From contig JBAZEY010000005.1 of NCBI GenBank assembly GCA_041653675.1, forward strand, positions 10,164-74,163: DNA of 64,000 nucleotides, in the 5' to 3' direction. The notes below the pieces were generated by a model. It made no database searches. It worked only from the letters and a program-made list of their open reading frames with translations, and was not told the DNA's origin. The stretch is from Patescibacteria group bacterium (GTDB lineage: Bacteria; Patescibacteriota; Patescibacteriia; XYB2-FULL-38-15). This document shows, piece by piece, positions 1,837-47,519 of this stretch. Made by a program: the position numbers and the translations under genes. Position 1 is the stretch's first letter, and the number at the start of each line of letters is the position of its first letter.

Positions 1837-1899
1837 TTGTTGTACGCCGAAGTAGCGTTCCAGCCTGGCCACGAAAGAGTGGCTTAGAAGGAGGAAGTT

Positions 1900-2358
1900 G
1901 TGAAGAGGATTCGTAGGGAAACCGCCCGCGTCGCCCGTCAGATGAGCGACGACATGGACGAACCGAGCATCCGGACCTGCTACCTAACTCTCTGGCCGCC
2001 CATTCCCATTTTCCCGGACTGCGAAGAGTGCCTCCAGGAAGCGCATATGTGCGGCGAATGCTGCGTGGGGTACCCGGTCGTCCATCGGGTTGATCTCAAC
2101 GACGACTACGACGCCACGATCGACGAGCCGTGCGAGTGCTACCCGGGCGTCCAGGCCTGCGTCTCGACGCCGTTGATGCCGCTCCCGCTCGACGAGATCG
2201 ACGGCGATGGCGATGGCTTCCTGGGCTGCGAGGAGTGCAACCCGGGGACGTGCACCTTCGAGTGCGGCACGGGCGTCCAGGCCCTCTCGGCCAGCGACGC
2301 CGACTGGATCTTGGACAAACACGAGCCGTACGAGATCGACGACGAATTCCCCAGCTGA
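1900..2358 (+). CDS. Hypothetical acidic Cys-rich protein (GC island 1), ~152 aa
   Basis: AGGAGG RBS 5 nt upstream of a GTG start. Strongly acidic with multiple CxxC/CEEC/CEC motifs. Coding GC is far above the flanking AT-rich DNA. I recognise no domain. Confidence 0.5.
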   Translation: MKRIRRETARVARQMSDDMDEPSIRTCYLTLWPPIPIFPDCEECLQEAHMCGECCVGYPVVHRVDLNDDYDATIDEPCECYPGVQACVSTPLMPLPLDEIDGDGDGFLGCEECNPGTCTFECGTGVQALSASDADWILDKHEPYEIDDEFPS

Positions 2359-2386
2359 CGACTACCGCAACTCCGATGAGTTGCGT

Positions 2387-2424
2387 GACGGGCGAAACCT
2401 GCAGAGGTTGCCCGTCTTTTTTTA
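2387..2424 (+). terminator. Intrinsic terminator: GACGGGC-N16-GCCCGTC hairpin followed by T8
   Basis: Inverted repeat plus T-run directly after the island 1 ORF. It abuts the queA stop on the opposite strand. Confidence 0.6.
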
Positions 2425-3441
2425 TTATAAAATCAACATTGCATCACCAAACGAATAAAACCGATAACGTTTTTTAATTGCAATTTGATAGGCCTTATCT
2501 ATAAATTTCTTGCCAGCGAAAGCCGCGACGAGCATTATCAAAGTTGACTTTGGAACATGAAAATTAGTAATCAAAGCGTCAATAAATTTGAATCTGTAAC
2601 CGGGATAGATAAAGATATTTGTTTCGCCGCTTTTGGCGCGGACTTTCCCATCGCTGGCGCAGTGTTCCAAAACTCGCACTGTGGTTGTCCCGCAAGCAAT
2701 AATTCTTCGGCCATCTTGTTTCGCCCCATTCAATCGCAGAGCGGTTTTTTTATCCAATTCAAAATATTCGCTATGGATTTTGTGTTTTGTAATATCATTT
2801 TCTTTTACCGGCTGAAAAGTGCCGAGGCCGACGTGGAGCGTGATATATTCAATTCGCACACCCATCTTTTTTAATTTTGCCAATAATTTTTTTGTAAAAT
2901 GCATTCCGGCGGTTGGCGCGGCAACCGATCCCAATTTTTCCGCGAAGACAGTTTGATATTCCGTGCTTTTTGCCAGTCGCTTGATGTACGGCGGCGTGGG
3001 CGGCTGGCCAATTTTTAAAATTTTCTCCATCAGTTTCACACCACTTAAATTAAATTTTATAACCGCCGTGTCCCCTGCTCTTTTTACGATCTCTCCACCC
3101 AATCCGCGGCTAAATTTTATTTTCAAACCAATTTGTTTTACGACCGGAACAAAACCCACAAGACATTGCCACGATGCCGCTGAAATTTGTTTTAAAAGTA
3201 AAATTTCCACCTTGCCGCCGGTTTCCTTTTTTCCTATCAATCTCGCCGGCAAAACTTTGGAATTATTTAAAACCAAAACGTCGCCGGGACGTAAATATTT
3301 TCCGAGATTATAAAAGCTATCGTGAGCCATGGATTGCTCTCCACAATTAAGCACCATTAACCGGCAGGCGTCGCGCGGGTTGGCCGGTTTTTGGGCGATT
3401 AAATTTTTCGGAAGATTAAAATCAAATTCAGATAATTTCAT
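2425..3441 (-). CDS. queA: S-adenosylmethionine:tRNA ribosyltransferase-isomerase
   Basis: 338 aa. MKLSEFDFNLPKNLIAQKPANPRDACRLMVL... matches QueA over its full length. Confidence 0.9.
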   Translation of the reverse strand: MKLSEFDFNLPKNLIAQKPANPRDACRLMVLNCGEQSMAHDSFYNLGKYLRPGDVLVLNNSKVLPARLIGKKETGGKVEILLLKQISAASWQCLVGFVPVVKQIGLKIKFSRGLGGEIVKRAGDTAVIKFNLSGVKLMEKILKIGQPPTPPYIKRLAKSTEYQTVFAEKLGSVAAPTAGMHFTKKLLAKLKKMGVRIEYITLHVGLGTFQPVKENDITKHKIHSEYFELDKKTALRLNGAKQDGRRIIACGTTTVRVLEHCASDGKVRAKSGETNIFIYPGYRFKFIDALITNFHVPKSTLIMLVAAFAGKKFIDKAYQIAIKKRYRFYSFGDAMLIL

Positions 3442-3470
3442 ACGAAAAAGGGACGAATCAACGTCCCTTT
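3442..3470 (-). terminator. Hairpin AAAGGGACG-N7-CGTCCCTTT followed (minus strand) by T5, just upstream of the queA ATG
   Basis: 9-bp stem read directly. Probable terminator of the rplM-rpsI transcript. Confidence 0.45.
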
Positions 3471-3502
3471 TATTATAACATGTTTTATTTTTAACGTTTT
3501 TG

Positions 3503-3606
3503 CCAATGCGGCGTCGACGCTTCGCGTCTCCTTAAAACCCTTCGGTTTTAATATTTCCGCCACGGGAAAACTATCGTTTTCCCGACCCCTTTCCAGTCCT
3601 CGCGTC
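3503..3606. repeat. Structured repeat element, copy A (~105 nt; three hairpins). Second copy at ~35300-35415 in opposite orientation.
   Basis: Core TTAAAACCCtTCGGTTTTAATATTTCCGCcACGGGAAAACTatCGTTTTCCCGACCCCTTTCC is >90% identical to the reverse complement of 35335-35396. Hairpins are AAAACC/GGTTTT, GGGAAAAC/GTTTTCCC and GACGC/GCGTC. Confidence 0.6.
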
Positions 3607-3612
3607 AAAAGC

Positions 3613-4164
3613 TTAGCGCTTTTGCCACTGCGGTGCTCTTCTCGCGCGCTTGAGGCCCGGTTTCTTTCTTTCCTTTACTCTAGGATCGCGAGTTAAAAAT
3701 CCAGCCTTGCGTAAATTCTTTTTAAAATTAACATTTAAAAGAACCAGTGCGCGAGAAATACCAAGGCGCACCGCCTCAGCCTGGCCGCGTAAACCGCCGC
3801 CAGATGATTTCGCTTCAATATCAACTTTATCCGCTTGGCCGACTGATTTTAATGGTCCGGAAACAATTTGTTCCATCTCTTCGGTCGGAAAACATTCTGT
3901 GTATAATTTTCCGTTAACCGTAATTTTGCCCTTGCCATTTTTATGAAGTCTCACGGTGGCAACAGCTTCTTTGCGCCGACCAATAGCATAAATATATCCC
4001 GATTTTTTATCTTCGGATATTTTTTCTTCGGCAACCGCCACTGTTTCTTTCTTTTCTTCCAGCTCCGGTTTTTCTTCCACCACTTTCTTTTTAGCAACTC
4101 TTTTCGCGGCCGGTTTGGTAGTCGCAGTTTTTGTCTTTTTAGGTTTTTTTATTTCCTCAGTCAT
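3613..4164 (-). CDS. rpsI: 30S ribosomal protein S9 with ~55-aa K/E-rich N-terminal extension
   Basis: C-terminal ...GYIYAIGRRKEAVATVRL...RDPRVKERKKPGLKRARRAPQWQKR is canonical S9. Confidence 0.9.
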   Translation of the reverse strand: MTEEIKKPKKTKTATTKPAAKRVAKKKVVEEKPELEEKKETVAVAEEKISEDKKSGYIYAIGRRKEAVATVRLHKNGKGKITVNGKLYTECFPTEEMEQIVSGPLKSVGQADKVDIEAKSSGGGLRGQAEAVRLGISRALVLLNVNFKKNLRKAGFLTRDPRVKERKKPGLKRARRAPQWQKR

Positions 4165-4170
4165 AAATTA

Positions 4171-4536
4171 TTACTTGCTGATTTTTAACCTTTTGATTAT
4201 TTTTTTCCTTGTTCTGTTCGTCGGCAACATTCCCCAAACAGCTTTCCAAACAACTTTTTGCGGGCTTTTCTCGAACAATTCTTTAATCGTCGGCTGCTTG
4301 GCTCCGCCCGGATAGAAAGTGTGCCAGAAATATTTTTTATCAGTAAATTTCTTACCAGTGAATTTAACTTTAGTGGCGTTTATAACATTAACAAAATCTC
4401 CGCCGTCCACATCAAACCTAAAAGAGGGACTTCCTTTCCCGCGTAAAAGTAGAGCAACCTTTGTTGCGAGTCTCCCGAGCGGTACACCCGCCGCATCAAC
4501 TGTATGTGTTTGTCTTTTTATTATTTCTTTTGGCAT
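4171..4536 (-). CDS. rplM: 50S ribosomal protein L13
   Basis: 121 aa. MPKEIIKRQTHTVDAAGVPLGRLATKVALLLRGK... matches L13. Confidence 0.9.
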   Translation of the reverse strand: MPKEIIKRQTHTVDAAGVPLGRLATKVALLLRGKGSPSFRFDVDGGDFVNVINATKVKFTGKKFTDKKYFWHTFYPGGAKQPTIKELFEKSPQKVVWKAVWGMLPTNRTRKKIIKRLKISK

Positions 4537-4540
4537 AAAT

Positions 4541-4891
4541 TTACACTAATTCAATTTGAACAATTTCTGCCGCGTCTCCCTGCCGGCGGCCGACATTTAT
4601 AATTCTTGTATAACCACCTTTGCGATCTTTGTATCTTGGACCAATCTCTTCCAAAATCTTTTTAACCGCTGCTTCTTTGTACAAATATTTTAAGAGATAT
4701 CGTCTCGTCGCCAAAGTATTAATTTTACCGCGAGTAATTAATCTCTCAACAATCGGCTTTACGGTTTTTGCCTTAGCTTTCGTTGTCTGCATTTTTTCAT
4801 ACAAAATCAAACTTACCGCCAATCCTCGAAGCAAGGCAGTTCTTGGTCCCACTTTTCTATCTAAAATTTTTCCCTTTTTTCTGTGACGCAT
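4541..4891 (-). CDS. rplQ: 50S ribosomal protein L17
   Basis: 116 aa. MRHRKKGKILDRKVGPRTALLRGLAVSLI... matches L17. Confidence 0.9.
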   Translation of the reverse strand: MRHRKKGKILDRKVGPRTALLRGLAVSLILYEKMQTTKAKAKTVKPIVERLITRGKINTLATRRYLLKYLYKEAAVKKILEEIGPRYKDRKGGYTRIINVGRRQGDAAEIVQIELV

Positions 4892-4953
4892 AATGAATTT
4901 TACTATGACGTGTAATAAGTTTTAACAATTAAATTTTGCCAGTCAACAGCAAA

Positions 4954-5778: not shown

Positions 5779-5805
5779 AAGACTTTATTAAACTCGTTTA
5801 AATTA

Positions 5806-6435
5806 TTAACGAGAATAAAATTCGATAATCATTTTAAGATCAAACTGCGTTTTCACGTCATTCTTGGTCGGTTTTCTTATGACTTTTCCTTCCATTTTTG
5901 CCGCATCAAGCGCAAGCCATGCCGGAGGTTCTAATTTTGCGAGCGTCTGCGGCAAATTCTCAAAAACTTTTTTAGCGGCGGCGTTTAATTTTATAGAAAC
6001 AATATCGCCGACTTTAACTTGATAAGAAGGAATCGTAACCTTTTTTCCATTTACGAAGAGCAAACCATGGCCGACAAGCTGTCTCGCCTGTTGACGTGAT
6101 TTTCCAATTCCAAGGCGATAAACAACATTATCAAAGCGCATTTCCAAAAGTTGGAGCAAGAATTCGCTCGTATCGCCGGTTTTTTTAATGGCTTTTTCAA
6201 AATAATTTCTAAACTGTCTTTCTAAAATTCCGTAAATACGTTTAGATTTTTGTTTTTCTCTAAGCTGTGTTCCGTAACCAGTTAATCTGATTTTTCCTTT
6301 CGGACCATGAACACCCGGCGGGTAACCCCTTCTGACCATGGCGCACTTGGTCAAATTACAACGATCCCCTTTTAAAAAAAGTTTTTCTCCCTCTCGACGA
6401 CATTGCGCGCATCTAGATTTTAAATATCTTCCCAT
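5806..6435 (-). CDS. rpsD: 30S ribosomal protein S4
   Basis: MGRYLKSRCAQCRREGEKLFLKGDRC... is the S4 zinc-ribbon N-terminus, followed by the S4 domain. Confidence 0.9.
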   Translation of the reverse strand: MGRYLKSRCAQCRREGEKLFLKGDRCNLTKCAMVRRGYPPGVHGPKGKIRLTGYGTQLREKQKSKRIYGILERQFRNYFEKAIKKTGDTSEFLLQLLEMRFDNVVYRLGIGKSRQQARQLVGHGLLFVNGKKVTIPSYQVKVGDIVSIKLNAAAKKVFENLPQTLAKLEPPAWLALDAAKMEGKVIRKPTKNDVKTQFDLKMIIEFYSR

Positions 6436-6442
6436 ATTTCAA

Positions 6443-6946: not shown

Positions 6947-7339
6947 TTAAGTTTTTTGTCCCGCTGCCTTACGGCCGCTACCCATTGTTCTTCGAGTGTT
7001 GCCGCGAACGGTGCGAGAATTTGTCTTTGTTCGTTGTCCACGCGCTGGAAGGCCTCTTGCGTGCCGTGTTCCCCGATATGCTCCTATTTCTTTCAATCTT
7101 TTAATATTGCTAAATACATCTCTTTTCAAATCACCTTCAACTTTATAATTTTTTTCAATAAATTCTCTTAATTTGTTAACTTCTTCGTCAGTCAAAGCAT
7201 TAGTTCTTGTATCCGGACTAATTTTCGTGGCCACCAAAATTTTATTCGCCTGTGCCCGGCCAATACCATATAAATAACCCAATGCGATTTCTATTCTTTT
7301 GTTTTGTGGGAGGACTAAACCTGCAATTCTAACTACCAT
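6947..7339 (-). CDS. rpsM: 30S ribosomal protein S13
   Basis: [35 protein letters not shown]... matches S13. Confidence 0.9.
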
Positions 7340-7422
7340 ATATTGTTAAATTTGTTAAATTAATCTCTATCGATTTGTTGCGTGATAACAGCCCAAGCAG
7401 TTTTTACCACACACCGCGTCGG

Positions 7423-7536
7423 TTATCCTTGTCTTTGTTTATGTTTAGCTGTTTTACAAATTACAAAAATCCGCTTACCGCGTTTTATAACTTTGCATGA
7501 CGGACAAATTTTTTTAACCGAAGCCCTGACTTTCAT
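7423..7536 (-). CDS. rpmJ: 50S ribosomal protein L36 (37 aa; absent from the supplied ORF track)
   Basis: Reverse-complement translation gives [37 protein letters not shown], the canonical L36 zinc ribbon. It sits between infA and rpsM as in the alpha operon. Confidence 0.8.
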
Positions 7537-7542
7537 AATTTT

Positions 7543-7767
7543 TTAAAATCTATAAACAACTCTTCCCTTGGTTAAATCGTACGGCGTCATTTCCACTTTG
7601 ACCTTATCACCAGGAAGCAATCTGATTTTATTTAAACGCATCTTGCCGGAAAGATGGCCCATAATAACATGGCCGTCCTCCAGCTTGATTTTGAAAGTAG
7701 CCGCCGGCAAAAGTTCGAGAACCTGGCCAGTCACTTCAATAAAGTCTTTACTCGTGTCTTGCACCAT
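7543..7767 (-). CDS. infA: Translation initiation factor IF-1
   Basis: 74 aa. ...[38 protein letters not shown] matches IF-1. Confidence 0.9.
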
Positions 7768-7898
7768 AAGGTGTAGAATTTTTAATTTTCTCTTTGATAA
7801 CTAAAATAAAAACCGCAGAACCCGGAATCTCATACCCGAGTCCCCAGTCCTAAAATTTTGATTTCGTTATCGCTGGAATTATTGACAAGCGAGTGAGA

Positions 7899-7920
7899 GA
7901 AATGAAATTCATTTCATTTC
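7899..7920. promoter_or_regulatory. 22-bp perfect palindrome GAAATGAAAT-tc-ATTTCATTTC in the alpha-operon leader
   Basis: 10-bp arms read directly. Located ~90 nt downstream of the promoter at 7992-8020 and ~130 nt upstream of infA. Confidence 0.5.
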
Positions 7921-7991
7921 CGAGCGAGCGCAGTCAACACAGGGTTGATGCCCTTTATTATATTATTCCCCTTAAAAGGTGTCAAGTAGTA

Positions 7992-8020
7992 TTATACAGA
8001 ATCCCCTATTTTATGTCAAA
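7992..8020 (-). promoter_or_regulatory. Consensus sigma70 promoter (TTGACA-N17-TATAAT) for the infA/alpha operon
   Basis: The minus strand reads TTGACAtaaaataggggattctgTATAATac. This implies a ~220-nt 5' leader before infA. Confidence 0.55.
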
Positions 8021-8032
8021 TCAAAGGTCTTA

Positions 8033-9790
8033 TTACTCTAAAACCGCTTTAATTCGGCGAATTCCCGCGCTTGAAGCCTCTTCCTTTATAATCTTAAAAG
8101 TCCCTAGTTCTCCGATATTATCCACATGCGGCCCGCCACAAATTTCTTTGCTAAAGTCGCCAATCGTGTAAACCTTAACCTTATCGCCGTATTTATGCTC
8201 AAAAACTCCGGTTGCGCCAGCTGTTTTAGCTTCATCAACCGTCATTTCTTCCATTTGCACCGGCGTTTTTTTGCTGATTTCATTATTAACTATTTCTTCC
8301 ACTTTTTTAATTTCTTCCGGCGTTACCTTTTGCGGATGCGAAAAATCAAAACGCAATCGCTCGGCGGTGATATTACTCCCGCGCTGCACCACATGCTCGC
8401 CCAAAACTTTTCGCAGGGCCGCGAGCATCAAATGTGCCGCGGTGTGCAGCCGAGTTGTTTCCACTCCGGCATCAGCCAAGCCGCCCTTAAACTGCCCGGC
8501 CGAAGCGGTTCGAGAAAGTTCTTGATGTTTTTTAAATTCTTCTTCAAATTCTTTGACGTCAACTTTCACGCCTTTGTCTTGTGCTAATTCCATCGTAAGT
8601 TCCAAGGGAAAGCCGTAAGTAGTAAAAAGGTTAAACGCATCTTTTCCCGTTACATTTTCTAATTTTTCAAATTCTTTCAATCCTCTTTCCAAAGTTTTAT
8701 CAAATTTTTTTTCTTCTTTATCTAATTCTTGAGCTATAAATTCGCTATTTTCTTCTAATTCATGATATTCCTGCCCGTAATAACTAGCAATTACTTTACT
8801 AAGACCGTACATAAAAGTCCCCTCAATGCCGATCTTTCTTGCATGCCGAATAGCTCGGCGAATCAAACGACGTAAAATATAACCCTGACCGACGTTTGAC
8901 GGAACAATCCCAATCGGATCGCCCAAAATAAAAGTCGCGGCACGAATGTGATCGGCGATAATTCTAACTGATTTTTCCTCCGGATCGGCGTCCGCCATTT
9001 CTTTTATCTTGGCCACGAGCGGCGCGAACATTTCTGTTTCATAAACACTATTACAACCGTTCAAAACTCCGATTGTCCGCTCAAGCCCCATGCCAGTATC
9101 AATATTTTTCTGCGCAAGCGGTTCATATTTCCCGTCGGCGGTTTTATTATATTGCATAAAAACATCGTTCCATATTTCTACCCATTTTTCCGTTGAACTC
9201 TTTGTTGAATCTTCGGGATCAAATTTTTCAGGAGGTTTTCCTTCGCCTTTCCAATAAAACATTTCTGTATCTGGTCCACATGGTCCGGTTGTACCAGCTG
9301 GTCCCCACCAATTATCTTTCTTCGGCAGTTTGGCAATTCGTTCCGGAGCAACTCCGAGAGAGATCCAAATATCATAAGCTTCTTTGTCAAAAGGAGCATC
9401 TTCGTCTCCGGCAAAAACGGTAACAGCTAAATATTTTTTATCAAGTCCGAGCCTTTTTTTATCCGTTAAAAATTCCCAAGACATTTTTATGGCGTCTTCT
9501 TTAAAATAATCGCCAAGCGACCAATTTCCTAACATTTCAAAAAAGGTATTATGCCAATTATCGCCAACCTCATCAATATCTCCCGTGCGAATGCATTTTT
9601 GTACGCTCGTTAAACGTTTTCCGGCCGGATGCTTTTCGCCAAGCAAAAACGGAACGAGCGGATGCATCCCGGCGGTCGTAAACAAAACCGTCGGGTCATT
9701 TTCCGGGATTAAAGAAGCCGAAGGAAGAACTGCGTGGCCGCGCTCCTCAAAAAATTCCAAATATTTTTCTCTCAATTCTTTAGCTGTCAT
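8033..9790 (-). CDS. alaS: Alanine--tRNA ligase, compact form (catalytic plus editing domains; no C-Ala/DHHA1 region)
   Basis: The class II AlaRS N-terminus is present (MTAKELREKYLEFFEERGHAVLPSASLIPENDPTVLFTTAGMHP...). The editing-site HxxxH...CxxxH block is present (TAAHLM...CGGPHV). Only 585 aa. Confidence 0.85.
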   Translation of the reverse strand: MTAKELREKYLEFFEERGHAVLPSASLIPENDPTVLFTTAGMHPLVPFLLGEKHPAGKRLTSVQKCIRTGDIDEVGDNWHNTFFEMLGNWSLGDYFKEDAIKMSWEFLTDKKRLGLDKKYLAVTVFAGDEDAPFDKEAYDIWISLGVAPERIAKLPKKDNWWGPAGTTGPCGPDTEMFYWKGEGKPPEKFDPEDSTKSSTEKWVEIWNDVFMQYNKTADGKYEPLAQKNIDTGMGLERTIGVLNGCNSVYETEMFAPLVAKIKEMADADPEEKSVRIIADHIRAATFILGDPIGIVPSNVGQGYILRRLIRRAIRHARKIGIEGTFMYGLSKVIASYYGQEYHELEENSEFIAQELDKEEKKFDKTLERGLKEFEKLENVTGKDAFNLFTTYGFPLELTMELAQDKGVKVDVKEFEEEFKKHQELSRTASAGQFKGGLADAGVETTRLHTAAHLMLAALRKVLGEHVVQRGSNITAERLRFDFSHPQKVTPEEIKKVEEIVNNEISKKTPVQMEEMTVDEAKTAGATGVFEHKYGDKVKVYTIGDFSKEICGGPHVDNIGELGTFKIIKEEASSAGIRRIKAVLE

Positions 9791-9794: not shown

Positions 9795-10853
9795 TTATTT
9801 TATAACTCCCCCGCCGAGCACTTCGTCTCCTTTGTAAAAAACCACCGACTGCCCCGCCGTAATAGCTCTCTGCGGCTTATCAAAAATTATTTTAAAATTA
9901 TTTTTTATTTTTTTAATCACGCACGGCGCTTCTTTATGTTTATATCGTATTTTTGCTTTGGCGCGCATCGGCAACTTTGGCGCGTGCCCGGCGATCCAGC
10001 TCACTCTTCCGGCTATTAATTCTTTTGATAATAATTTCTTTTGATCGCGGCTAACATATAAAACATTTTTTCCAGTATCAATTTTCACAACATACCACGG
10101 CCCGCCGCCGAGCGCCAATCCCCTTCTCTGGCCAATTGTATAGAATGGCAAACCGTCGTGCCCACCCAATTTCTTTCCACTTTCTAATTCTACAATTTTT
10201 CCACTTTTAACTTTCAAATATTTTTTCAAAAAACTTTTTAAACTTGCTCCCACAAAACAAACTTCCTGGCTGTCTTTTTTCGCGTGAACCGGCAAGCCGA
10301 ATTTTTTGGCCATCGCTCGCACTCGCGGTTTTACATAATCGCCTACCGGAAACAAAATCTGCTTTAATTTATCTTGCGTCAAAGTATAAAGAAAATACGA
10401 TTGATCTTTTTCTGGATCTTTTCCTTTTAATAATTTACCATTGATAACTCGCGCGTAATGTCCGGTCGCAACATATTCTGCACCCATTGCCCGCGCCTTC
10501 TTTAACAATTCTCCAAATTTTATAAACCTATTACACTCCACGCAAGGATTCGGCGTCCGTCCGGCCCGATATTCTTTCAAAAAATAATCTACCACCAATT
10601 TCTTAAACGGAACTTTCATGTTCAGCGTATAGATCGGAATTCCCAATTTTTGCGCCACGCGTCGCGCGTCGCTGTATGCCTCAAATGAACAACATTTATT
10701 CATCGCGCAACCTGCGCCGCTGGCCGACTCCGACCAAAACCGCATAAAAACGCCGACGACATCAAACCCCTGCTTTTTCAAAAGTGCGGCCGCGACCGAA
10801 GAATCAATTCCGCCCGACATTGCTACCATTACTTTTTCCTTTTTCTTCATCAT
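9795..10853 (-). CDS. mnmA: tRNA-specific 2-thiouridylase
   Basis: MVAMSGGIDSSVAAALLKKQGFDVVGVFM... has the PP-loop (SGGxDS) and MnmA-like length and body. Confidence 0.9.
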   Translation of the reverse strand: MMKKKEKVMVAMSGGIDSSVAAALLKKQGFDVVGVFMRFWSESASGAGCAMNKCCSFEAYSDARRVAQKLGIPIYTLNMKVPFKKLVVDYFLKEYRAGRTPNPCVECNRFIKFGELLKKARAMGAEYVATGHYARVINGKLLKGKDPEKDQSYFLYTLTQDKLKQILFPVGDYVKPRVRAMAKKFGLPVHAKKDSQEVCFVGASLKSFLKKYLKVKSGKIVELESGKKLGGHDGLPFYTIGQRRGLALGGGPWYVVKIDTGKNVLYVSRDQKKLLSKELIAGRVSWIAGHAPKLPMRAKAKIRYKHKEAPCVIKKIKNNFKIIFDKPQRAITAGQSVVFYKGDEVLGGGVIK

Positions 10854-10894
10854 AATAATTATCTAATCTTACAATAAATTATCTATAAAAACAA

Positions 10895-10940
10895 GAGATA
10901 AAAAACGCTGGCCATCGCGCCGTAACGCAATTTGGCCAGC
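10895..10940 (-). terminator. Intrinsic terminator after the GC island 2 ORF: CGCTGGCCA...TGGCCAGCG hairpin followed by T6 on the minus strand
   Basis: Inverted repeat and T-run read directly, downstream of the 10955 stop. Confidence 0.5.
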
Positions 10941-10954
10941 ACTTCGCCCTCCTC

Positions 10955-11785
10955 CTACTCGCCTTCCGCGATCTCCACGAGCCTGCGCTCGAAGGATCGC
11001 CGCTTCGGCTCCCGTTCGAGGTAACCGCACACGACCTTCTTGACGTTGAACATGTCGGGCAAATCGCCGACAAACCCGAAGAGCCCGCGGAGTCTTTCGA
11101 GCTGCACCTGCAGGGCGCGAGCGTAAACCAAGCCGTGCGAACGGCCCATGGTGAGAATCGTTGCCTCCGAGAAGCCGGGCCCCTTTTCCGGCATCTGCCT
11201 GGCCTCTGCGAGAATCAGGAGCGCCGCCCTTTCGGGATCCCCCGCCGACCCCCTCGGTGCGTAGCAGAAATTGATTGTGGCCGCACACTGGGCGTCGAAC
11301 CAATTTCCCGCCCGTGCTGCTTCCAGACAGTCCTCGCGTACTTGGGTCGCCCACTTCCCGAAAAACGTCTGCCGGTTCACCTTGGAGGTGTCGATCACCC
11401 ATTGCCAAGCGAAGACGGTCGGCGAGTTTGGGATGTCATAGACATGAATCAGGGCGTCACCCAACTCAGCCTTCATCGCCTCGAGGCGCGAATACGGCGA
11501 CAATCTCCAATAGTCCACCTTCTCGCAGCCTGCGATCTTGGCCTGGATTGCCGCCTCTTCCGGTGTAGCCCGCCGAAGCTTGGCCGACAGGTGGCCGTTT
11601 CCGGCGTCATGGCTCTCCACTTCCACTACAGGAAACCCCAGAGCTTTTCCCATGGCTTGGAGAACCTTGTGTTGATCGGCCGTGTACCATTCGAACCACG
11701 CGGCGGAGATCTCCTCTCCGACCGCACGGATCTCCCCGGAAATGTATTCACCTAGCGCGAACTTCACTTCACGATTTTCCGCCAT
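10955..11785 (-). CDS. Hypothetical protein (GC island 2), 276 aa
   Basis: AGGAGG RBS 8 nt upstream of the ATG (MAENREVKFALGEY...). ~60+% GC. The region is open in several frames, and this is the longest ORF with an RBS. No known domain recognised. Confidence 0.5.
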   Translation of the reverse strand: MAENREVKFALGEYISGEIRAVGEEISAAWFEWYTADQHKVLQAMGKALGFPVVEVESHDAGNGHLSAKLRRATPEEAAIQAKIAGCEKVDYWRLSPYSRLEAMKAELGDALIHVYDIPNSPTVFAWQWVIDTSKVNRQTFFGKWATQVREDCLEAARAGNWFDAQCAATINFCYAPRGSAGDPERAALLILAEARQMPEKGPGFSEATILTMGRSHGLVYARALQVQLERLRGLFGFVGDLPDMFNVKKVVCGYLEREPKRRSFERRLVEIAEGE

Positions 11786-37198: not shown

Positions 37199-37335
37199 AA
37201 AAATATTATTCTACTAAAACATTGGCGCTACCGTCCAAATAACCATGGATAAAACAATCATGGCGCTTAAAATTATCCAAACGATTTTTAATAAATTTCT
37301 TTTTTTCATAAATAAATTAAAAAATAAATATTGGA

Positions 37336-37353: not shown

Positions 37354-37380
37354 TAAAACAAAAACACCGCCAGAAGGCGG
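37354..37380 (-). terminator. Intrinsic terminator CCGCC-AGAA-GGCGG followed by TGTTTTTGTTTT on the minus strand, terminating the island 3 transcript
   Basis: Read directly. Confidence 0.6.
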
Positions 37381-37589
37381 AGTTCTTGTGTGGGATTTAA
37401 AGATAGTCAAAAATGACTAAAATTTTGTTTTTGTTATTAATCCCTTTTCTCTAAACCATTTCGCTGATTTAGAGGAAAGGGACTTGGAGCAAGATCCTGT
37501 CACGCCTCGATTTCTCGATTTGTGAACAGTGTCTGCATTGCACAGACTACTTGCTCCAAGAAAATGTTGGAAGGAACGAACTGGCAGAA

Positions 37590-38522
37590 CTAGCGCTTCT
37601 TGCCGCCGCCGTTCGAGCCCTTCTGGCCGCCCTTGTGGCGCTTGCCGGCACCGAAGCGCGTGTTGCCCACGGCCAGGGCGAGTTTCCGGCGACGGTCCCA
37701 ACGCCGCGCTTCCCGCTCGGCGCGGCTGAGCTGCGGCTTCACCTCGGTCGCGACCGCCGGCTTCTTCGGCTCGGGCTGCTTCGGGGGCGAAACGACCTGG
37801 TCCGCGTCCTTCTTGTTCCGCCGCTCGATCTCCATCTGGGCGCCGCGGTAGTCGAAGAGTTGGATGCTCCTCAACGCCCCGGCCTTGATCAGGACGGCGT
37901 ACTGCTCGCGACAGATCCCGGCGACCGCGCGCTTGCCGTCCTTGTCCTTCACGATCGCGTAGCGCGTTACGAACTCGTCGTCGCGGTGGAGTAGGCAGTT
38001 CGGCACGCCGCAAACCACCCTACCCTTCTCGTCCCGGAGCGCCTGGAGCGGCTCGGCCGTGCCGACCACGACCGCCTTCCAGTAGTCCACGGCGGCGGCC
38101 TCGGCGCGGATCGCGGCGTTCCTCACGCCGACGATCCCGTAGAGCGCCCCGATCTTCATCAGGTGGCGGCGCTCTTCGGGCGACATCCGCCCCTCGGCGC
38201 AGGGGTTGCAGATCGGCTCGAAGCCCCAGAGCTTCAGACCGTCCCGCTCGATCTGGACGAGGAGAGCGAGCTTGATCTTGCCGACGGAGTTCCCGTCGGC
38301 GTGCCCGCACTTCGAGCAGACCCGCTTCGGCTTCGGCGCTTCGGTCACGACGATCGGGTCGTCGACCGGCTTCTCCGGCTCGACCGCGACCGGCTCCGCC
38401 ACCTCCGTCGTCATGGACGGCATGGCGGCGAGGACCATCTCTTCGTACTCTTCATCGGTCAGGTTCCCGAGGCCCGCCGACACCGGCACCACGATTCCCA
38501 TCGTCGTCTCCGCCATGTTCAT
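37590..38522 (-). CDS. Hypothetical zinc-finger protein with basic C-terminal tail (GC island 3), 310 aa
   Basis: AAGGAGA RBS 1-2 nt before the ATG (MNMAETTMG...). CSKCGH...CNPC and CGVPNC motifs. C-terminal ...RRWDRRRKLALAVGNTRFGAGKRHKGGQKGSNGGGKKR. ~65-70% GC by eye. Confidence 0.5.
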   Translation of the reverse strand: MNMAETTMGIVVPVSAGLGNLTDEEYEEMVLAAMPSMTTEVAEPVAVEPEKPVDDPIVVTEAPKPKRVCSKCGHADGNSVGKIKLALLVQIERDGLKLWGFEPICNPCAEGRMSPEERRHLMKIGALYGIVGVRNAAIRAEAAAVDYWKAVVVGTAEPLQALRDEKGRVVCGVPNCLLHRDDEFVTRYAIVKDKDGKRAVAGICREQYAVLIKAGALRSIQLFDYRGAQMEIERRNKKDADQVVSPPKQPEPKKPAVATEVKPQLSRAEREARRWDRRRKLALAVGNTRFGAGKRHKGGQKGSNGGGKKR

Positions 38523-38547
38523 TCTCCTTATTCTCTTGGCAGTTACG

Positions 38548-38572
38548 AAAAATCAGACCGGAAACCGATCTG
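38548..38572 (-). terminator. Attenuator-like hairpin CAGATCGG-TTT-CCGGTCTG followed by T5, ~25 nt upstream of the island 3 RBS
   Basis: Read directly on the minus strand. An intrinsic-terminator shape placed inside the 5' leader. Confidence 0.4.
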
Positions 38573-38853
38573 ACCTTGGCTTCCCGAAACTGTCGGGATG
38601 TGCCAGAGGAATTTGGAGGCGAGTTGGCCTGTTCTGATAGCACAGAACTGGCCGGTGGCATTTTGGTCAATTTACTTTTAGTAATCCAAGGCGGACAACC
38701 GAAAGTTAATTGAACCTCATGCCGGATCCCGCGGTCACCAATTAATGGTCCGCGAAGATTTTCCTCCTCCAAGTTTCTCTGGCACTATTTTGTAAGGAAC
38801 TAGCACGACAAGCACTTTTTTTAATCTTTAAGCCTATTTCAGCTTAACAAATA

Positions 38854-38882
38854 AGTATAACATATATTCCGTATTTTGTCAA
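38854..38882 (-). promoter_or_regulatory. Promoter TTGACA-N17-TATACT with TG extension, driving the island 3 gene through a ~320-nt leader
   Basis: The minus strand reads CCCCTTGACAaaatacggaatatatgtTATACTtatttg. Confidence 0.45.
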
Positions 38883-42681: not shown

Positions 42682-42685
42682 AATT

Positions 42686-43834: not shown

Positions 43835-43836
43835 AA

Positions 43837-44418
43837 TTATTCCAAAATCAATTCGCCAAAACCGCAAACTTTTCCGCAGCCCGAGGCGTTGGCTTCGTCA
43901 GTATCAATATGAATTGAGGCGTGAAAACTTGGTTTGATGCGAACGACAACATTTTCAAAAATCAATCCCCGCTCGCCCGCGACTTTCACTTTTACCAAAT
44001 CATCGTTTTTAATCCCGAGTTCGTCGGCTTCTTTTTGATTAATATGTAAATGGCGTTTGGCGATAATAATTCCTTCAGCTAAATCAACTTCGCCCGCCGG
44101 ACCGATAATTTTCGCGCCAGCTGAACCAGCTACATCTCCGGAAATCCGAAGCGGCGCGTCAAAGCCGAGCGAGAAAGCATCGGTATAAGCTAACTCAATT
44201 TGCGTCGCCGGTCGAACCGGTCCAACTACTCTTAAATTTTCCAATTTTCTTTTCGGTCCAACGAGTGTTACCGTTTCCTCCGCCGCGAACTCCCCTTCTT
44301 GCGATAAATCTTTTAGTTTTTTCAACTCATATCCCGCGCCAAAAAGTTTTTCCAAATCAGATTGATTTAGATGAATGTGTCGCGCGGAAATTTCTACTTT
44401 TACTTTTATAGTTTTCAT
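43837..44418 (-). CDS. PduL/EutD-type phosphate acyltransferase (phosphotransacetylase)
   Basis: Two PduL repeats with ISARHIHL and IAKRHLHI motifs. 193 aa. Adjacent to ackA. Confidence 0.65.
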   Translation of the reverse strand: MKTIKVKVEISARHIHLNQSDLEKLFGAGYELKKLKDLSQEGEFAAEETVTLVGPKRKLENLRVVGPVRPATQIELAYTDAFSLGFDAPLRISGDVAGSAGAKIIGPAGEVDLAEGIIIAKRHLHINQKEADELGIKNDDLVKVKVAGERGLIFENVVVRIKPSFHASIHIDTDEANASGCGKVCGFGELILE

Positions 44419-44419
44419 A

Positions 44420-45421
44420 TTATTTCCCTATTAATTTTGTGGCCGTTGTCCAAGCTAAAAGCGGCTCTTGGGCTCCGATGCCGGTCAAATTATACGCGCT
44501 GTTTAAGGCGGCGAGTTTCGCGGCTTTCAAAACATTTCCGCAATAGCGAATATAGCCGGCAAGAAAACTTGAACAAAATGCGTCTCCCGCGCCGGTCGTG
44601 TCCACAACTCTTTTGCTTAAAGAAGCTTGATGATAAATTTTTCCGCGAAGATAAATGTACGCGCCTTTCGCGCCGTCAGTAATTACTAAAATTCCCAGAC
44701 AAAATTCCGCCAAAACTCCAAAAAGATTTTTGGGCTGATTTAGCCACGCCGTGCCAGCTTTTTTATATTTTGGCAGAGACATAACAAGTTCAATCGCTTC
44801 ATCTTTATTTACAAAAAATATCGCCGTCTTTGCCATGTATTTTTTTAAACCAAAAAGACCCGTCGCGAGCTGTTTATTTCCTGGATTCCAAGCCAGCCGC
44901 GTTTCTTTTTTCGCAACCACAGAATCCAACACGCTTCGCCATCCTTCACCCGAAAGCGACGCGACATAAAACCAATCCGTTTTAAATTTCAAATCGCGCG
45001 CCGCAAGTCTTAAATTATTATTCGCTCCGCGAAATAAAAATGCCGTATGCTCAACTTCCGGACCAAAAGTTACAATAAAAGAAAAACCTGTCTTTAGAGC
45101 CGGATCAGTTTGAATAAATTTTATGTCAATTTTATTTTTTACTAAATTCGCGATGACCGCCCGACCGTCTTCGTCTTTTCCAACTCGCGCGATTGTTGCG
45201 GTCTTTAAACCTAAACGCGCTAAAGCCACGGCCGCGTTCGCCGCTCCGCCGCCAAAAGTTTGAAATGATTTTTCAATATTAATTTTCGCGCCGTATTCAA
45301 ATCCCAAAAGTTTCTGCCGCAACGGATCTTTCATTTGGGCAACTAATTTTCCTTCTTTAGTATAAAAAGTTATATCCCGCGCCGCTCCGCCAATCGTCAC
45401 GACGTCAAAATTTTTTGCCAT
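44420..45421 (-). CDS. PfkB-family carbohydrate/nucleoside kinase
   Basis: N-terminal VVTIGGAARD and C-terminal VVDTTGAGDAF motifs. 333 aa. Confidence 0.75.
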   Translation of the reverse strand: MAKNFDVVTIGGAARDITFYTKEGKLVAQMKDPLRQKLLGFEYGAKINIEKSFQTFGGGAANAAVALARLGLKTATIARVGKDEDGRAVIANLVKNKIDIKFIQTDPALKTGFSFIVTFGPEVEHTAFLFRGANNNLRLAARDLKFKTDWFYVASLSGEGWRSVLDSVVAKKETRLAWNPGNKQLATGLFGLKKYMAKTAIFFVNKDEAIELVMSLPKYKKAGTAWLNQPKNLFGVLAEFCLGILVITDGAKGAYIYLRGKIYHQASLSKRVVDTTGAGDAFCSSFLAGYIRYCGNVLKAAKLAALNSAYNLTGIGAQEPLLAWTTATKLIGK

Positions 45422-45423
45422 AG

Positions 45424-45720
45424 TTATCTTTTTAATTTCTTTAATTGCGTAATCAATTTGTCTTTTGCCAAATCAATTGCCTCAACAATCGTGTGATCGT
45501 CTTCACTTACGAGAAAACTTTGTTTTGGCAATTTTAAATCAAAAGTAATTTTGTAAGCGCTTTTGCTGGCAAACTTTTCTGCCTTAATCCGGAGCGAGAC
45601 TGAATCTTCCGCCTGCCGGTGAATTAATTTCTCCAATTGCGGAATTTTTGTCTCCACATATTCTTCGCACCATTTCTTTTCATTCGGAGTTAAATTTTTG
45701 AAAAAATAATCAATTTGCAT
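45424..45720 (-). CDS. hpf: Ribosome hibernation promoting factor / RaiA family
   Basis: 98 aa. ...VSLRIKAEKFASKSAYKITFDLKLP... matches the YfiA/HPF fold. Confidence 0.75.
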   Translation of the reverse strand: MQIDYFFKNLTPNEKKWCEEYVETKIPQLEKLIHRQAEDSVSLRIKAEKFASKSAYKITFDLKLPKQSFLVSEDDHTIVEAIDLAKDKLITQLKKLKR

Positions 45721-45746
45721 ATGTAAAAAATTAATGATTAATTGTT

Positions 45747-45762
45747 AAATTATAACATAAAA
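45747..45762 (-). promoter_or_regulatory. Extended -10 (TATGTTATAAT) promoter for hpf
   Basis: The minus strand reads TTTTATGTTATAATTTAAC, ~30 nt upstream of the ATG. Confidence 0.35.
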
Positions 45763-45787
45763 CTAAGAGAAAGCGAAACCGTTTCTA

Positions 45788-45837
45788 TTGACAAGTTACT
45801 AAATATATTCTATTATTAAAAGTCCACAATTTTGTGG
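45788..45837 (+). promoter_or_regulatory. Island 4 cassette 1 promoter TTGACA-N17-TATTAT plus operator-like palindrome CCACAA-tt-TTGTGG (45824-45837)
   Basis: TTGACAagttactaaatatattcTATTATtaaaagtCCACAATTTTGTGG read directly. Followed by AGGAGA RBS and an ATG at 45862. Confidence 0.55.
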
Positions 45838-45861
45838 GATGGGATAGAGGAGAAAGAGTCC

Positions 45862-46194
45862 ATGAAACTCAAGCCGACCGTCTTAGAATTGCAGGTGTTG
45901 GAGCTGACTGAGTACATGAGACTCAAGCCGACCAACATCACCTTGGGCGCGGGTTGCGTGATCGGTTTCTACCGGAACGAACGTTGCATCGTGGTTATGC
46001 CCGAATCGGGCAGCGGAGTTCGGATCGACTGGCCGGGCACAAACGACGACAAGCGGATCGCGCCTCCGTGCATCAAGACGGAGAAGGATTTTCTCGACGT
46101 CGTCAATCTCTTCGCCGCGATGCTCGGTCTCCAGGCCGTCCCCGACAGCTTCGAGCGGCCGTACGGGATCGCCCTTCGCCTCGTCAAGCGGTAG
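45862..46194 (+). CDS. Hypothetical protein (GC island 4, cassette 1), ~110 aa, with duplicated N-terminal MKLKPT/MRLKPT
   Basis: RBS GAGGAGAaagagtccATG. 21-nt repeat ATGAAACTCAAGCCGACC / ATGAGACTCAAGCCGACC in frame 54 nt apart. GC-rich. No domain recognised. Confidence 0.45.
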   Translation: MKLKPTVLELQVLELTEYMRLKPTNITLGAGCVIGFYRNERCIVVMPESGSGVRIDWPGTNDDKRIAPPCIKTEKDFLDVVNLFAAMLGLQAVPDSFERPYGIALRLVKR

Positions 46195-46240
46195 CGGACA
46201 GAACAAGTCGTAAAACGGTTTGCAAACATGCGAACTGACC

Positions 46241-46268
46241 GAGAGCCTTCGACAAGCTCTCTTTTTTA
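46241..46268 (+). terminator. Terminator GAGAGC-CTTCGACAA-GCTCTC followed by T6. Identical copy at 46890-46919.
   Basis: Read directly. Preceded by the shared 15-mer AACAAGTCGTAAAAC. Confidence 0.65.
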
Positions 46269-46281
46269 TTTAAAGCCGATC

Positions 46282-46331
46282 TTGACAATTTGCTAAATAT
46301 CTGATATTATTCAATGTCACAATTTCGTGAC
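46282..46331 (+). promoter_or_regulatory. Island 4 cassette 2 promoter TTGACA-N17-TATTAT plus operator-like palindrome GTCAC-aatttc-GTGAC (46316-46331)
   Basis: TTGACAatttgctaaatatctgaTATTATtcaatGTCACAATTTCGTGAC read directly. Near-identical in layout to 45788-45837. Confidence 0.55.
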
Positions 46332-46869
46332 TAGAAAGAAGGAGGCCGTGCGCTACTTGTTCATTCCGAGTTGCGAAGTGGCGATGAAGAATGTGCTGAC
46401 TGGCACGACTACCGAAAAGCGCCTCATCCGCGGCCTCGATCTTTGGCGGGCAGGCGGCTACGACGCCATCATCGTGACGGGCGGCATCTATTTGCCGCCA
46501 GAACAACAGACGATCCCCTCGGGAATCTTGATGGAATACTGGCTCATCGAGCACGGTGTGCCAGAGAAGGCCATCATCTGCGAAGATCACTCACGCGATA
46601 CCTTCGAAAACATTTCTGGCGCCCTGACACTCATCGCCGACGACCCCGCGCCAGAATTCACGGTCGTGACCCACTGGCAGCACGCGCTGCGGTTCTGGGT
46701 AACCTTCCACCTCGCGCACCGGCGCAAGATTCGCCTCGTGCCGATGTGGTACTGGACCGATCTCAAGGGTTTTGTGTTGGAGTGGGCATTCCTGCTCGTA
46801 CATCTTCTCGATCGAAACGGAACCGGCCGGATCGCCACTCGGAACCGCGACAGTCACAACAAGTCGTAA
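46327..46869 (+). CDS. DUF218 (YdcF/ElyC/SanA-like) domain protein (GC island 4, cassette 2). True start probably downstream of the AAGGAGG at 46339-46345 (TTG 46356 or ATG 46384).
   Basis: DUF218 hallmarks ...YDAIIVTGGI... and ...CEDHSRDTFEN... GC-rich. The coordinates given are the track ORF. Confidence 0.5.
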   Translation: MTRKKEAVRYLFIPSCEVAMKNVLTGTTTEKRLIRGLDLWRAGGYDAIIVTGGIYLPPEQQTIPSGILMEYWLIEHGVPEKAIICEDHSRDTFENISGALTLIADDPAPEFTVVTHWQHALRFWVTFHLAHRRKIRLVPMWYWTDLKGFVLEWAFLLVHLLDRNGTGRIATRNRDSHNKS

Positions 46870-46889
46870 AACAATTCGGCCACGGCCGG

Positions 46890-46919
46890 ATAGAGCCTTC
46901 GACAAGCTCTCTTTTTTTA
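46890..46919 (+). terminator. Second copy of the AGAGCCTTCGACAAGCTCTC plus T7 terminator
   Basis: 19/19 identity of the stem-loop with 46241-46261. Confidence 0.65.
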
Positions 46920-47519
46920 TTTTAATTTTTTAAAAAAATCATCTATCGGAGGCTTAAAATATTCTTTGAATAACGGATCAATAAATTTATATTTTTCTCC
47001 CCTCTTTTGCATTTTGTATTTTTTCGGCCCGACTATGTCGGCCATAATTGAATCAACGATTCTTTCTTTTTCATTTTGATTTATTTTGTATTTTTGAATA
47101 TATGACTCAATCGCGAGGTGGACAATCTCGTGCAAAAGTGTGTTCAGCGGCGACACCGCGTTTATATTAAGAATGATTTTGTCTGGCGGAACATAAGATC
47201 CACCGACTCCGTATTTCGTGAGAATTAATTGATAACTTTTTCTTATTTTTTTACCGCATATTTTTCCTAGTCGGCCGTAGAAATCTTTTTCTATTTTTGA
47301 AAAATTTTTCTTGGCCGCGTCCGCGGCTTTTTTATAATCTCTTTCTTTGTATTCTTTTCTGAGTGCGGTGTATATTTTTTCCAAACTATCAATTTTTGGA
47401 TTAATATTTTTTGGAAAACAGGGAATATATCCAAATTTTTTATACCAGGAAAATTTTTTTACGGCACTTTGAATCCGTTGTTTCTCCGTATTAATGTTGT
47501 ATTTTATCTCTAGCGGCAT
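46917..47519 (-). CDS. Hypothetical protein with HExxH motif (possible metallopeptidase-like)
   Basis: ...NTLLHEIVHLAIESY... 200 aa, K-rich. No confident family. Confidence 0.35.
   Translation of the reverse strand: MPLEIKYNINTEKQRIQSAVKKFSWYKKFGYIPCFPKNINPKIDSLEKIYTALRKEYKERDYKKAADAAKKNFSKIEKDFYGRLGKICGKKIRKSYQLILTKYGVGGSYVPPDKIILNINAVSPLNTLLHEIVHLAIESYIQKYKINQNEKERIVDSIMADIVGPKKYKMQKRGEKYKFIDPLFKEYFKPPIDDFFKKLK

Follow-up and report, generated by a model that had tools for sequence, protein, structure and literature searches.

Probable single-gene accessory cassettes of high GC content in fixed intergenic slots of a Patescibacteria clade

We analysed a 64,000-nt stretch of DNA from a Patescibacteria group bacterium (NCBI GenBank assembly GCA_041653675.1, contig JBAZEY010000005.1, positions 10,164 to 74,163 of the forward strand), referred to in this work as the window, in which four short GC-rich islands lie between housekeeping genes. 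The islands harbour five open reading frames (ORFs), named I1, I2, I3, I4a and I4b. GC content, calculated in 400-nt intervals, was 0.53-0.70 at 2001-2400, 10801-11600, 37601-38800 and 46001-46800 and approximately 0.41 elsewhere, confirming the four islands seen by eye in an earlier note on this DNA. The GC content at third codon positions (GC3) of the five island ORFs was 0.74-0.94, compared to 0.39 in the 59 other genes of the window (standard deviation 0.042, maximum 0.50; z = 8.4-13.1), and nothing intermediate was present. GC content at the first and second codon positions (GC1 and GC2) was also elevated. Relative synonymous codon usage was correlated among the five ORFs (r 0.46-0.83), with a common preference for CTC, but showed no correlation with that of the host (r -0.06 to -0.19). 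All five ORFs are outliers by both per-gene measures, and they are compositionally alien to their genome. By contrast with the earlier note, which described the promoter and untranslated region (UTR) DNA as AT-rich like the host, the island UTRs had 0.42-0.62 GC vs. 0.32 ± 0.08 in other intergenic DNA.

Each island ORF is preceded by an AGGAG-type ribosome-binding site (RBS) and followed by a predicted terminator (hairpin plus U-tract, z -2.2 to -6.0 vs. shuffled sequences). Promoter-like sites of the form TTGACA-17-TATxxT, matching the consensus at 11 of 12 positions, were found for four of the five ORFs (I1, I3, I4a and I4b). I1 (1900..2358, + strand, 152 aa, acidic and Cys-rich, GC3 0.86) has its putative promoter at 1805..1833 (+; TTGACA-17-TATTAT with a TG extension, 11/12 match), its RBS AGGAGG at 1889-1894 and its terminator hairpin and U-tract at 2387..2424 (+; -19.3 kcal/mol, z -3.6). 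I2 (10955..11785, - strand, 276 aa, GC3 0.74) is followed by a terminator at 10899..10945 (-; -24.5 kcal/mol, z -3.2). Its promoter had been called unresolved and we agree: I2 is without a good promoter, and a 4/6 + 4/6 candidate, found by eye, lies between the QueH terminator and the I2 RBS. I3 (37590..38522, - strand, 310 aa, GC3 0.94) is preceded by a predicted promoter at 38854..38882 (-; TTGACA-17-TATACT with TG), and the unit ends with a terminator at 37355..37389 (-; -19.3 kcal/mol, z -5.8). The layout of simple expression units therefore stood as far as the RBSs, the terminators and the four promoters, borne out by consensus and folding, but not for I3, which has a ~325-nt structured leader and a structured 3' element. 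Pfam supported the flanking pairs that had been named: a Wzx-type flippase and QueA (I1), MnmA and QueH (I2), RecJ and LepA (I3), and Hpf and an unknown protein (I4a and I4b).

Very sharp GC boundaries, near-consensus promoters and a vector-like layout are also what an assembly or binning chimera, or engineered or spiked-in DNA, would present. However, three independent assemblies contain the QueH-I2-MnmA stretch, at a nucleotide identity of 99.5-100% and with the exact I2 protein and the same neighbours, so the islands are natural and neither an assembly nor a design artefact. The I3 and I4 loci recur in many other assemblies, including contigs of 396 kb, 567 kb and 886 kb, and the same junctions were found across samples and pipelines (Logan, ENA, JGI and NCBI), with graded and not identical divergence. 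The chance of an artefact is next to negligible, and the suggestion of non-native insertions made in the earlier note is contradicted.

Related loci and contigs are labelled here with L and a number (such as L097) and two related proteins with P (P0018 and P0025). Proteins identical to I2 and I3 are recorded in an NCBI metagenome-assembled genome labelled Patescibacteria group bacterium. The best LepA matches among species representatives were in Falkowbacteria, Buchananbacteria and Parcubacteria-type genomes (58-67% identity), and sister loci with a LepA 89-93% identical to that of the window were found in L084/L085, L086 (the 886-kb contig), L087, L090, L098 and L106. At the same flanks, sister species hold orthologues of I1, I2, I3 and I4b that have remained GC-rich; the synonymous divergence (dS) of their flanking genes from the window is 0.75-1.9. 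In 5.8 billion proteins searched, all 12 I3 relatives, all four I1 relatives and five of the six I2 relatives belonged to this low-GC clade. By comparison of these sequences, the islands are older than the divergence of at least 5-7 sister species.

This age bears on a possibility raised in the earlier note, that the islands belong to one accessory system, scattered over the genome and recently gained from a single high-GC donor. The common layout, the correlated codon usage with its CTC preference and the confinement of the homologues to a narrow group are in keeping with one system. Against it stand the orthologues at the same flanks in species with flanking dS of 0.75-1.9, the amelioration gradient of I2 (see below), the independent presence and absence of the islands, and the absence of mobility genes from the flanks scanned, of tRNA targets and of defence-system matches. 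No protein family common to the islands was found, and none of the five proteins matched a PADLOC defence system at E<=0.1. We regard a single recent gain as highly improbable; the sister genomes carry the same high-GC genes, with amelioration in I2, which is the outcome that the earlier note had set as arguing against recent import. The flanking genes scanned are housekeeping genes and include no integrase, transposase or other recombinase, the sole tRNA lies at 53910-53983 and is not an island target, and the only repeats found were the two cassette 3' elements of island 4. Compared to a typical genomic island, these loci show the deviant composition and lack both the absence from relatives and the mobility signatures; only the cassettes at the hpf site were variable in presence among the sister genomes. 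We consider it probable that each of the five ORFs is an independent accessory cassette, a single gene with autonomous transcription, and that these cassettes occupy fixed intergenic slots in a genus-level Patescibacteria clade.

The slot beside hpf contains two of these cassettes. I4a (45862..46194, + strand, 110 aa, GC3 0.82) has its predicted promoter at 45788..45816 (+; TTGACA-17-TATTAT, 11/12 match), followed by the 5'-UTR palindrome GTCCACAATTTTGTGG at 45822-45837 (+). I4b (46327..46869, + strand, up to 180 aa, GC3 0.75, with a likely start at GTG 46348 or TTG 46357) has its own at 46282..46310 (+; TTGACA-17-TATTAT with TG, 11/12 match). The promoters and 5' UTRs of both are alike, and each cassette closes with ACAAGTCGTAAAAC, then a hairpin that varies and a terminator that is identical in the two. 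This hairpin-forming 3' element of ~70 nt is present as copy 1 at 46203..46268 (+; ACAAGTCGTAAAAC, the variable hairpin and AGAGCCTTCGACAAGCTCTC with a T-run) and as copy 2 at 46859..46918 (+; motif and terminator as in copy 1). AGTCGTAAAAC closes every hpf-site cassette in the window and in 10 sister loci, followed by the AGAGCCTTCGACAAGCTCTC terminator wherever the contig reaches that far. I4b ends in NKS*, coded by the conserved AACAAGTCGTAA; this ending, which derives from the common 3' motif, was seen in three proteins unrelated to one another.

The content of the hpf site differs between close relatives. I4a and I4b are both missing in L097, the closest relative (94% nucleotide identity), and in L104, where the terminator alone remains. 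I4b orthologues (~80% identical, GC3 0.75-0.83) lie beside hpf in L086, L099 and L111; I4b is present without I4a in L086 and L099, and in L111 it is accompanied by an unrelated ORF at the I4a position. Unrelated ORFs occupy the site in L084, L101, L102, L103, L105, L106 and L111, and in L101 the same promoter, UTR and 3' element surround a different ORF. The site is therefore an array of zero to two or more orphan ORFs in one orientation, mutually unrelated, among them DUF218, a ~120-aa family, small Cys-rich proteins and small membrane proteins, the last three without a Pfam match.

In sedentary chromosomal integron cassette arrays, such as the Vibrio VCR (Vibrio cholerae repeat) arrays, unrelated orphan ORFs also lie in one orientation, each with a hairpin-forming 3' element, of ~70 nt in the case of the hpf site. 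The variable ORFs and the conserved 3' repeat agree with such an array, but the 3' element, inspected by eye, has no RYYYAAC/GTTRRRY attC core sites and there is no adjacent integrase (IntI), so an integron reading was rejected. No recombinase was found among the genes adjoining the array (flanks scanned), and, unlike integron cassettes, each cassette has its own promoter. The exchange at the hpf site could be plain homologous recombination.

I3 changes by replacement of alleles within a constant site. Of its 12 relatives, every one with readable context sits between LepA and RecJ, and I3 was found at every LepA-RecJ junction that could be read. There are at least three I3 allele types, incongruent with the host tree: between the window and L098 the identity is 0.93 for LepA and 0.375 for I3, and between the window and L084 it is 0.90 and 0.68, respectively. 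The alleles are mosaic, with a conserved N-terminus and tail and a variable middle. The I3 leader, unlike the ORF, tracks the host tree, the predicted I3 promoter is kept in L086 and L106, and identity along the locus is 85-97% in the flanks compared to 30-87% in the ORF. A comparable pattern is present in I1, whose family comprises four proteins. Its orthologues in L136 and L137 lie after the flippase gene (91-94% identical) with a GC3 of 0.81-0.85; the last 200 nt of the locus (2220-2420, terminator included) are 88-100% identical to L137, and the middle of the ORF 53-78%. Across these slots the regulatory flanks (promoter, UTR or leader, 3' element and terminator) are inherited with the host, and the ORFs are swapped, gained and lost.

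Silent sites were compared between orthologues at four-fold degenerate positions in identical codon families, with G or C scored as S and A or T as W. In five lineages, I3 had a GC3 of 0.91-0.94, compared to 0.37-0.53 in its flanking genes, and in L098 and L106 its GC3 was 0.89 and 0.94, respectively. When both orthologues carried G or C, the fraction of G<>C exchanges in I3 (0.14-0.35) was similar to that in LepA, RecJ and MurJ (0.15-0.36); because the G<>C exchange equals that of the flanking genes, I3 appears as old as its flanks. S<>W exchanges, however, made up 8-18% of the four-fold sites in I3 compared to 31-46% in LepA, RecJ and MurJ. A two-state neutral model, calibrated on the flanks and started from an ancestral four-fold GC of 0.95, predicted for I3 a four-fold GC of 0.57-0.71 and an S<>W share of 0.38-0.48, vs. 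an observed S<>W share of 0.08-0.18 and GC3 of 0.91-0.94. Since G/C exchange is normal and yet A/T alleles are not fixed, an active bias would hold the GC3 of I3 near 0.93. An in-situ bias, either selection on GC-rich nucleic acid or biased gene conversion, is the explanation that we favour for I3.

Low S<>W with normal G<>C divergence is also the pattern expected in a high-GC genome. The slots might be old and their GC-rich ORFs, I3 above all, recurrently overwritten by alleles of a high-GC replicon outside the sampled sequences, be it a phage, a plasmid or the host organism of the symbiont; in such a replicon, a GC3 of ~0.9 would be the mutational equilibrium. The incongruent and mosaic I3 alleles, the turnover of hpf-site cassettes between close relatives, an I2 homologue located on a 63% GC phage-like contig, and a weak, non-significant likeness of the I2 N-terminal domain to small actinophage proteins all agree with such re-import. 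On the other hand, the 12 I3, four I1 and five of six I2 relatives are in the low-GC clade, at the same site where readable; the I2 scans of IMG/VR and the search of GenBank phages for P0018 gave no relatives; and it would be uncommon for a phage of 65-70% GC to infect a host of 41% GC. Alleles can be replaced only where there is homology, and the flanks track the host tree. Where four-fold codon families offer C or G, the choice made by the islands resembles that of the host (r = 0.72 in the window and 0.90 in the sister genomes) more than that of the phage-like contig (r = 0.30 and 0.58), a closeness to the host that is only suggestive (n = 8). Taken together, recurrent re-import is rather unlikely, although we regard it as a serious rival to the in-situ bias.

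High GC as a by-product of very high expression, through transcription-coupled mutation and repair or codon optimisation, was considered too. In line with this, 11/12 promoters precede four of the five ORFs, and the RBS is strong in every one of them. However, GC3 in the window is lowest (0.28-0.40) in the presumed infA-rpmJ/ribosomal-protein cluster, which is preceded by two perfect 12/12 promoters. Island codon usage is thus contrary to that of the genes for which the highest expression would be expected, and on this ground we reject expression as the cause. The raised GC1 and GC2 also make selection on synonymous codons insufficient by itself. An effect of expression is very unlikely.

Several points weigh against the cassette reading and the in-situ bias of I3. 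The neutral model is a crude two-state one that assumes vertical descent of I3, yet its alleles were exchanged, and if these alleles dwell in an unsampled high-GC replicon, a bias in situ is unneeded. Just 5-7 lineages were compared, and the four-fold counts are small for I1 and I4b. We know of no bacterial precedent for GC selection or gene conversion this strong (GC3 0.94 vs. 0.39). The searches found no donor or reservoir genome for I1, I3 or I4a, whose foreign origin is read from composition alone. The promoters, the terminators and the attenuator role of the I3 leader are predictions from consensus and structure. The ratio of non-synonymous to synonymous divergence (dN/dS) was 0.61-0.83 in I3, 0.58-1.0 in I1, 0.19-0.30 in I4b and 0.14-0.24 in I2, compared to 0.05-0.08 in LepA and RecJ (the island proteins evolve 3-6 times faster than the proteins of the flanking genes), and values near 1 in I1 and I3 raise doubt about constraint on these proteins. 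Against this doubt stand the strong three-base GC periodicity (in I3, GC3 0.94 vs. GC2 0.44), ORFs that are open in all lineages, and invariant Cys/His motifs.

I2 follows a different compositional course. Six relatives were found, with syntenic orthologues between QueH and MnmA in L094, L138 and L139; the four syntenic I2 genes have a GC3 of 0.64-0.74. The only relative outside the clade, P0018 (42% identical to I2), is encoded on L092, a uniformly 63% GC contig with tightly packed small ORFs, PHROG matches and one gene with relatives only in large phages. From this phage-like homologue, GC3 descends in the series 0.88, 0.74, 0.71, 0.68 and 0.64. The four-fold S<>W share of I2 (0.31-0.37) is in the range of its flanks (0.28-0.45). 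This is ordinary amelioration towards host composition. I4b and I1 are probably also ameliorating; their small counts are compatible with slow decay. Because P0018, the I2 homologue furthest removed from the others, comes from a phage-like contig of 63% GC, a high-GC mobile pool is plausible as the ultimate origin, and for I2 the homology points to a high-GC gene pool of phage type. IMG/VR scans with I2 and with the I2 alignment gave no relative, and P0018 has no relative in GenBank phages. In L002, from an otherwise near-identical strain, 11 nucleotides differ from the window and none of them is in I2; seven of the 11 fall within 18 nt at the 3' end of mnmA (window 9864-9881), and this cluster suggests a short recombination tract in mnmA.

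Compositional outliers are routinely read as recent transfers and dated by amelioration, a process by which, according to the model reportedly advanced by Lawrence and Ochman, acquired genes approach the composition of their host. I2 fits this model (GC3 from 0.88 to 0.74-0.64), and I4b and I1 are compatible with it. I3 fails: its GC3 and S<>W values lie outside neutral expectation, and dating by amelioration does not work because the gene is at least as old as the genus-level radiation and yet undecayed. GC-biased gene conversion, said to act on the mouse Fxy gene at the pseudoautosomal boundary and reportedly described for bacteria by Lassalle et al. in 2015, resembles the situation in I3 by the sharp local rise in GC3, the increased GC1 and GC2, fast amino-acid change and frequent recombination. 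It differs in that the flanks of I3, where crossovers would be expected, remain AT-rich, and to our knowledge no bacterial case of GC-biased conversion reaches the magnitude of I3.

According to these comparisons, the five cassettes can be placed in a common scheme, which remains conditional. Before the radiation of the clade, their ORFs would have been taken up from a mobile gene pool of high GC content, probably carried by phages, and they would now turn over by recombination within conserved flanks and conserved ORF ends. Composition would follow two regimes, in which I2 decays towards the host as in classical amelioration and I3 is held at a GC3 near 0.93 by active bias. This bias may be selective, favouring mRNA or DNA rich in GC, or it may come from GC-biased gene conversion in a hot spot of recombination. 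A stronger version is that of an undescribed cassette system, in which conserved expression sockets, with their promoters and their structured 3' (and, in I3, 5') RNA or DNA elements, act as recombination anchors for hypervariable orphan genes, and an active GC-favouring process, either GC-biased gene conversion or direct selection on transcripts, keeps the coding DNA inside them at a GC3 of ~0.9 in a genome with a gene average of 0.39; we put it forward only tentatively, as a possibility. Our literature searches gave no description of such cassettes in Patescibacteria. If the cassette-system reading were true, these loci would be the clearest bacterial case of locally maintained composition and would make foreign GC content an unreliable transfer clock; if the bias is real, they would provide a compact natural test of bacterial GC-biased gene conversion or GC selection, which have long been disputed. 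The loci also illustrate the variable accessory repertoire of the ultra-small, gene-poor genomes of the candidate phyla radiation (CPR), with reusable promoter/terminator sockets and cassette turnover.

Among the closest known counterparts are phage morons, reportedly described by Hendrix and colleagues as promoter-ORF-terminator units of deviant GC content between conserved genes. Like morons, the islands are single ORFs with a predicted promoter and terminator of their own (by consensus and folding, the I2 promoter excepted), have deviant composition, lie between syntenic genes without disrupting them and mostly have no assigned function; in the I2 family, one relative is located on a phage-like contig. 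Unlike morons, they are located in a cellular chromosome among housekeeping genes and not in a phage or prophage, they occupy the same sites across species, and their host-like, conserved regulatory flanks serve more than one kind of ORF.

The transcript predicted from the consensus promoter of I3 has a leader of ~325 nt. Within it, the segment 38549..38787 (- strand) folds into a three-hairpin junction enclosed by a 20-bp helix, after which come a terminator hairpin (~38549-38585) and U-tract. Covariation supported this fold (82 pairs, 96.8% of cells paired, 23 pairs with a compensatory change), which was reached in 0 of 500 shuffles, and slid controls gave 0-4. A conserved 12-bp hairpin with U-tract ends ~27 nt ahead of the I3 start codon, just upstream of the RBS, and because an intrinsic terminator lies directly before the RBS we read the leader as a putative cis-acting attenuator. 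It is a candidate attenuator or riboswitch-like element: like riboswitches and the leaders of ribosomal-protein autoregulation, it combines a long, conserved and covarying fold with an expression platform before the ORF. It differs from them in belonging to no described class (Rfam 15 gave no hit, whether searched at gathering threshold or at E<=10), in being located at one locus in one clade, and in regulating, by this prediction, an orphan gene. A covariance model of the leader found no second copy in 1.56 Mb of related loci. I3 would be transcribed through the ~240-nt structured leader, with the terminator gating expression, and the effector could be a ligand or the basic zinc-motif protein I3 itself.

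Downstream of the ORF, the I3 3' structured element (37432..37563, -) consists of a closing stem formed by CUUGGAGCAAG and CUUGCUCCAAG, two hairpins and then a long hairpin. Its fold has 47 pairs, 16 of them with a compensatory change, and in L106 it closes both cassettes present at the I3 site. The second GC-rich cassette of L106 (18657-19451) possibly encodes an 80-aa zinc-ribbon protein of the CGHC...CC type. At gathering threshold, the Rfam scan of the window detected only a tRNA. Two structured RNAs unmatched in Rfam thus flank the orphan zinc-motif gene I3 and make a regulatory RNA candidate; we know of almost no regulatory RNAs described in the phylum of this bacterium. Between the I3 unit and recJ lies a hydrophobic 31-aa ORF (MKKRNLLKIVWIILSAMIVLSMVIWTVAPMF, 37214-37309, - strand), with its own extended -10 sequence (TGTTATAAT), that is kept in five sister loci.

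Another leader was observed elsewhere in the window. In the region at 7957-8019, 7817-7844 and ~7423-7767 (all -), two tandem perfect 12/12 TTGACA-17-TATAAT promoters would drive a ~150-nt leader with a terminator-like hairpin of its own, ahead of small ORFs. We take these ORFs to be infA (IF-1) and rpmJ (L36), heading a likely ribosomal-protein cluster. This is a possible attenuator leader by its predicted structure; a permissive Rfam scan of 7300-8060 gave nothing credible.

Protein searches agreed with the earlier view that DUF218 is the sole recognised family among the five proteins. I4b matched DUF218 (PF02698, E 4e-18, 66.1 bits vs. a gathering cut-off of 27.6) and, weakly, ElyC. It shares the Pfam domain with the YdcF/SanA/ElyC-like proteins and differs from them as a short single-domain form on a mobile GC-rich cassette. 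I1, I2, I3 and I4a had no match in Pfam, NCBIfam, PHROG or PADLOC, and none of the island proteins matched PHROG. I2 has a confident predicted fold, with an alpha/beta N-terminal domain, in which the weak, non-significant resemblance to small actinophage proteins is structural, and a C-terminal helical-repeat domain; the fold matches generic helical repeats only. I3 has an acidic N-terminus, zinc-type motifs (CxxCGH...CNxC and CGVPxC) and a basic tail ending in RHKGGQKGSNGGGKKR; the CxxCGH, CNxC and CGVPxC motifs are invariant and the basic tail is kept across the homologues. No fold match was found for I3, and a PDB profile search with its alignment gave zinc-finger noise alone (E>0.1).

I4a has 19 relatives among 1.84 billion representatives, mostly of 78-132 aa. 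Since these homologues align from residue ~19-25, I4a probably starts at 45916 and has 92 aa. An 18-nt direct repeat, ATGA(A/G)ACTCAAGCCGACC, is present at 45862 and 45916 (copies 54 nt apart) at the 5' end of I4a; it has the appearance of a duplication at a junction, through which I4a gains 18 residues missing from the homologues. A giant protein of 5143 aa (P0025) matches I4a by 16 separate stretches, the best of them corresponding to I4a residues 19-52, and the two may share a repeat module.

In the I1 slot of L136 (1443-2003) and L137 (1509-2107), three tandem GC-rich ORFs of 57-67 aa were found on the - strand. They are paralogous, with acidic N-termini and a C-terminal YD[FY]xLP[LF][FW] motif, and are absent from the window; by their sequences they look like peptide precursors.

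Approximately five comparable GC-rich ORFs were found in 1.48 Mb from 80 more distant Patescibacteria loci; as they are so few, the density of islands is specific to the clade and not phylum-wide. Single ORFs with a GC3 of 0.75-0.82 lie in L038 (773-1312), L059 (7835-8356), L114 (2472-2783) and L116 (12082-12447), and the frequency is around one per 300 kb in the distant Patescibacteria vs. one per 13 kb in the window. Three other contigs (L118, L121 and L128) have 62-66% GC overall and hpf beside MurJ, with LepA also downstream in L121; they may be high-GC relatives, partly similar in gene order, and candidate members of a GC-rich donor pool. In L097, ~800 nt (1473-2289) are extra near window position ~49500, and unalignable sequence at 4272-4724 (vs. 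window 46917-47519) replaces the 200-aa HExxH gene of the window.

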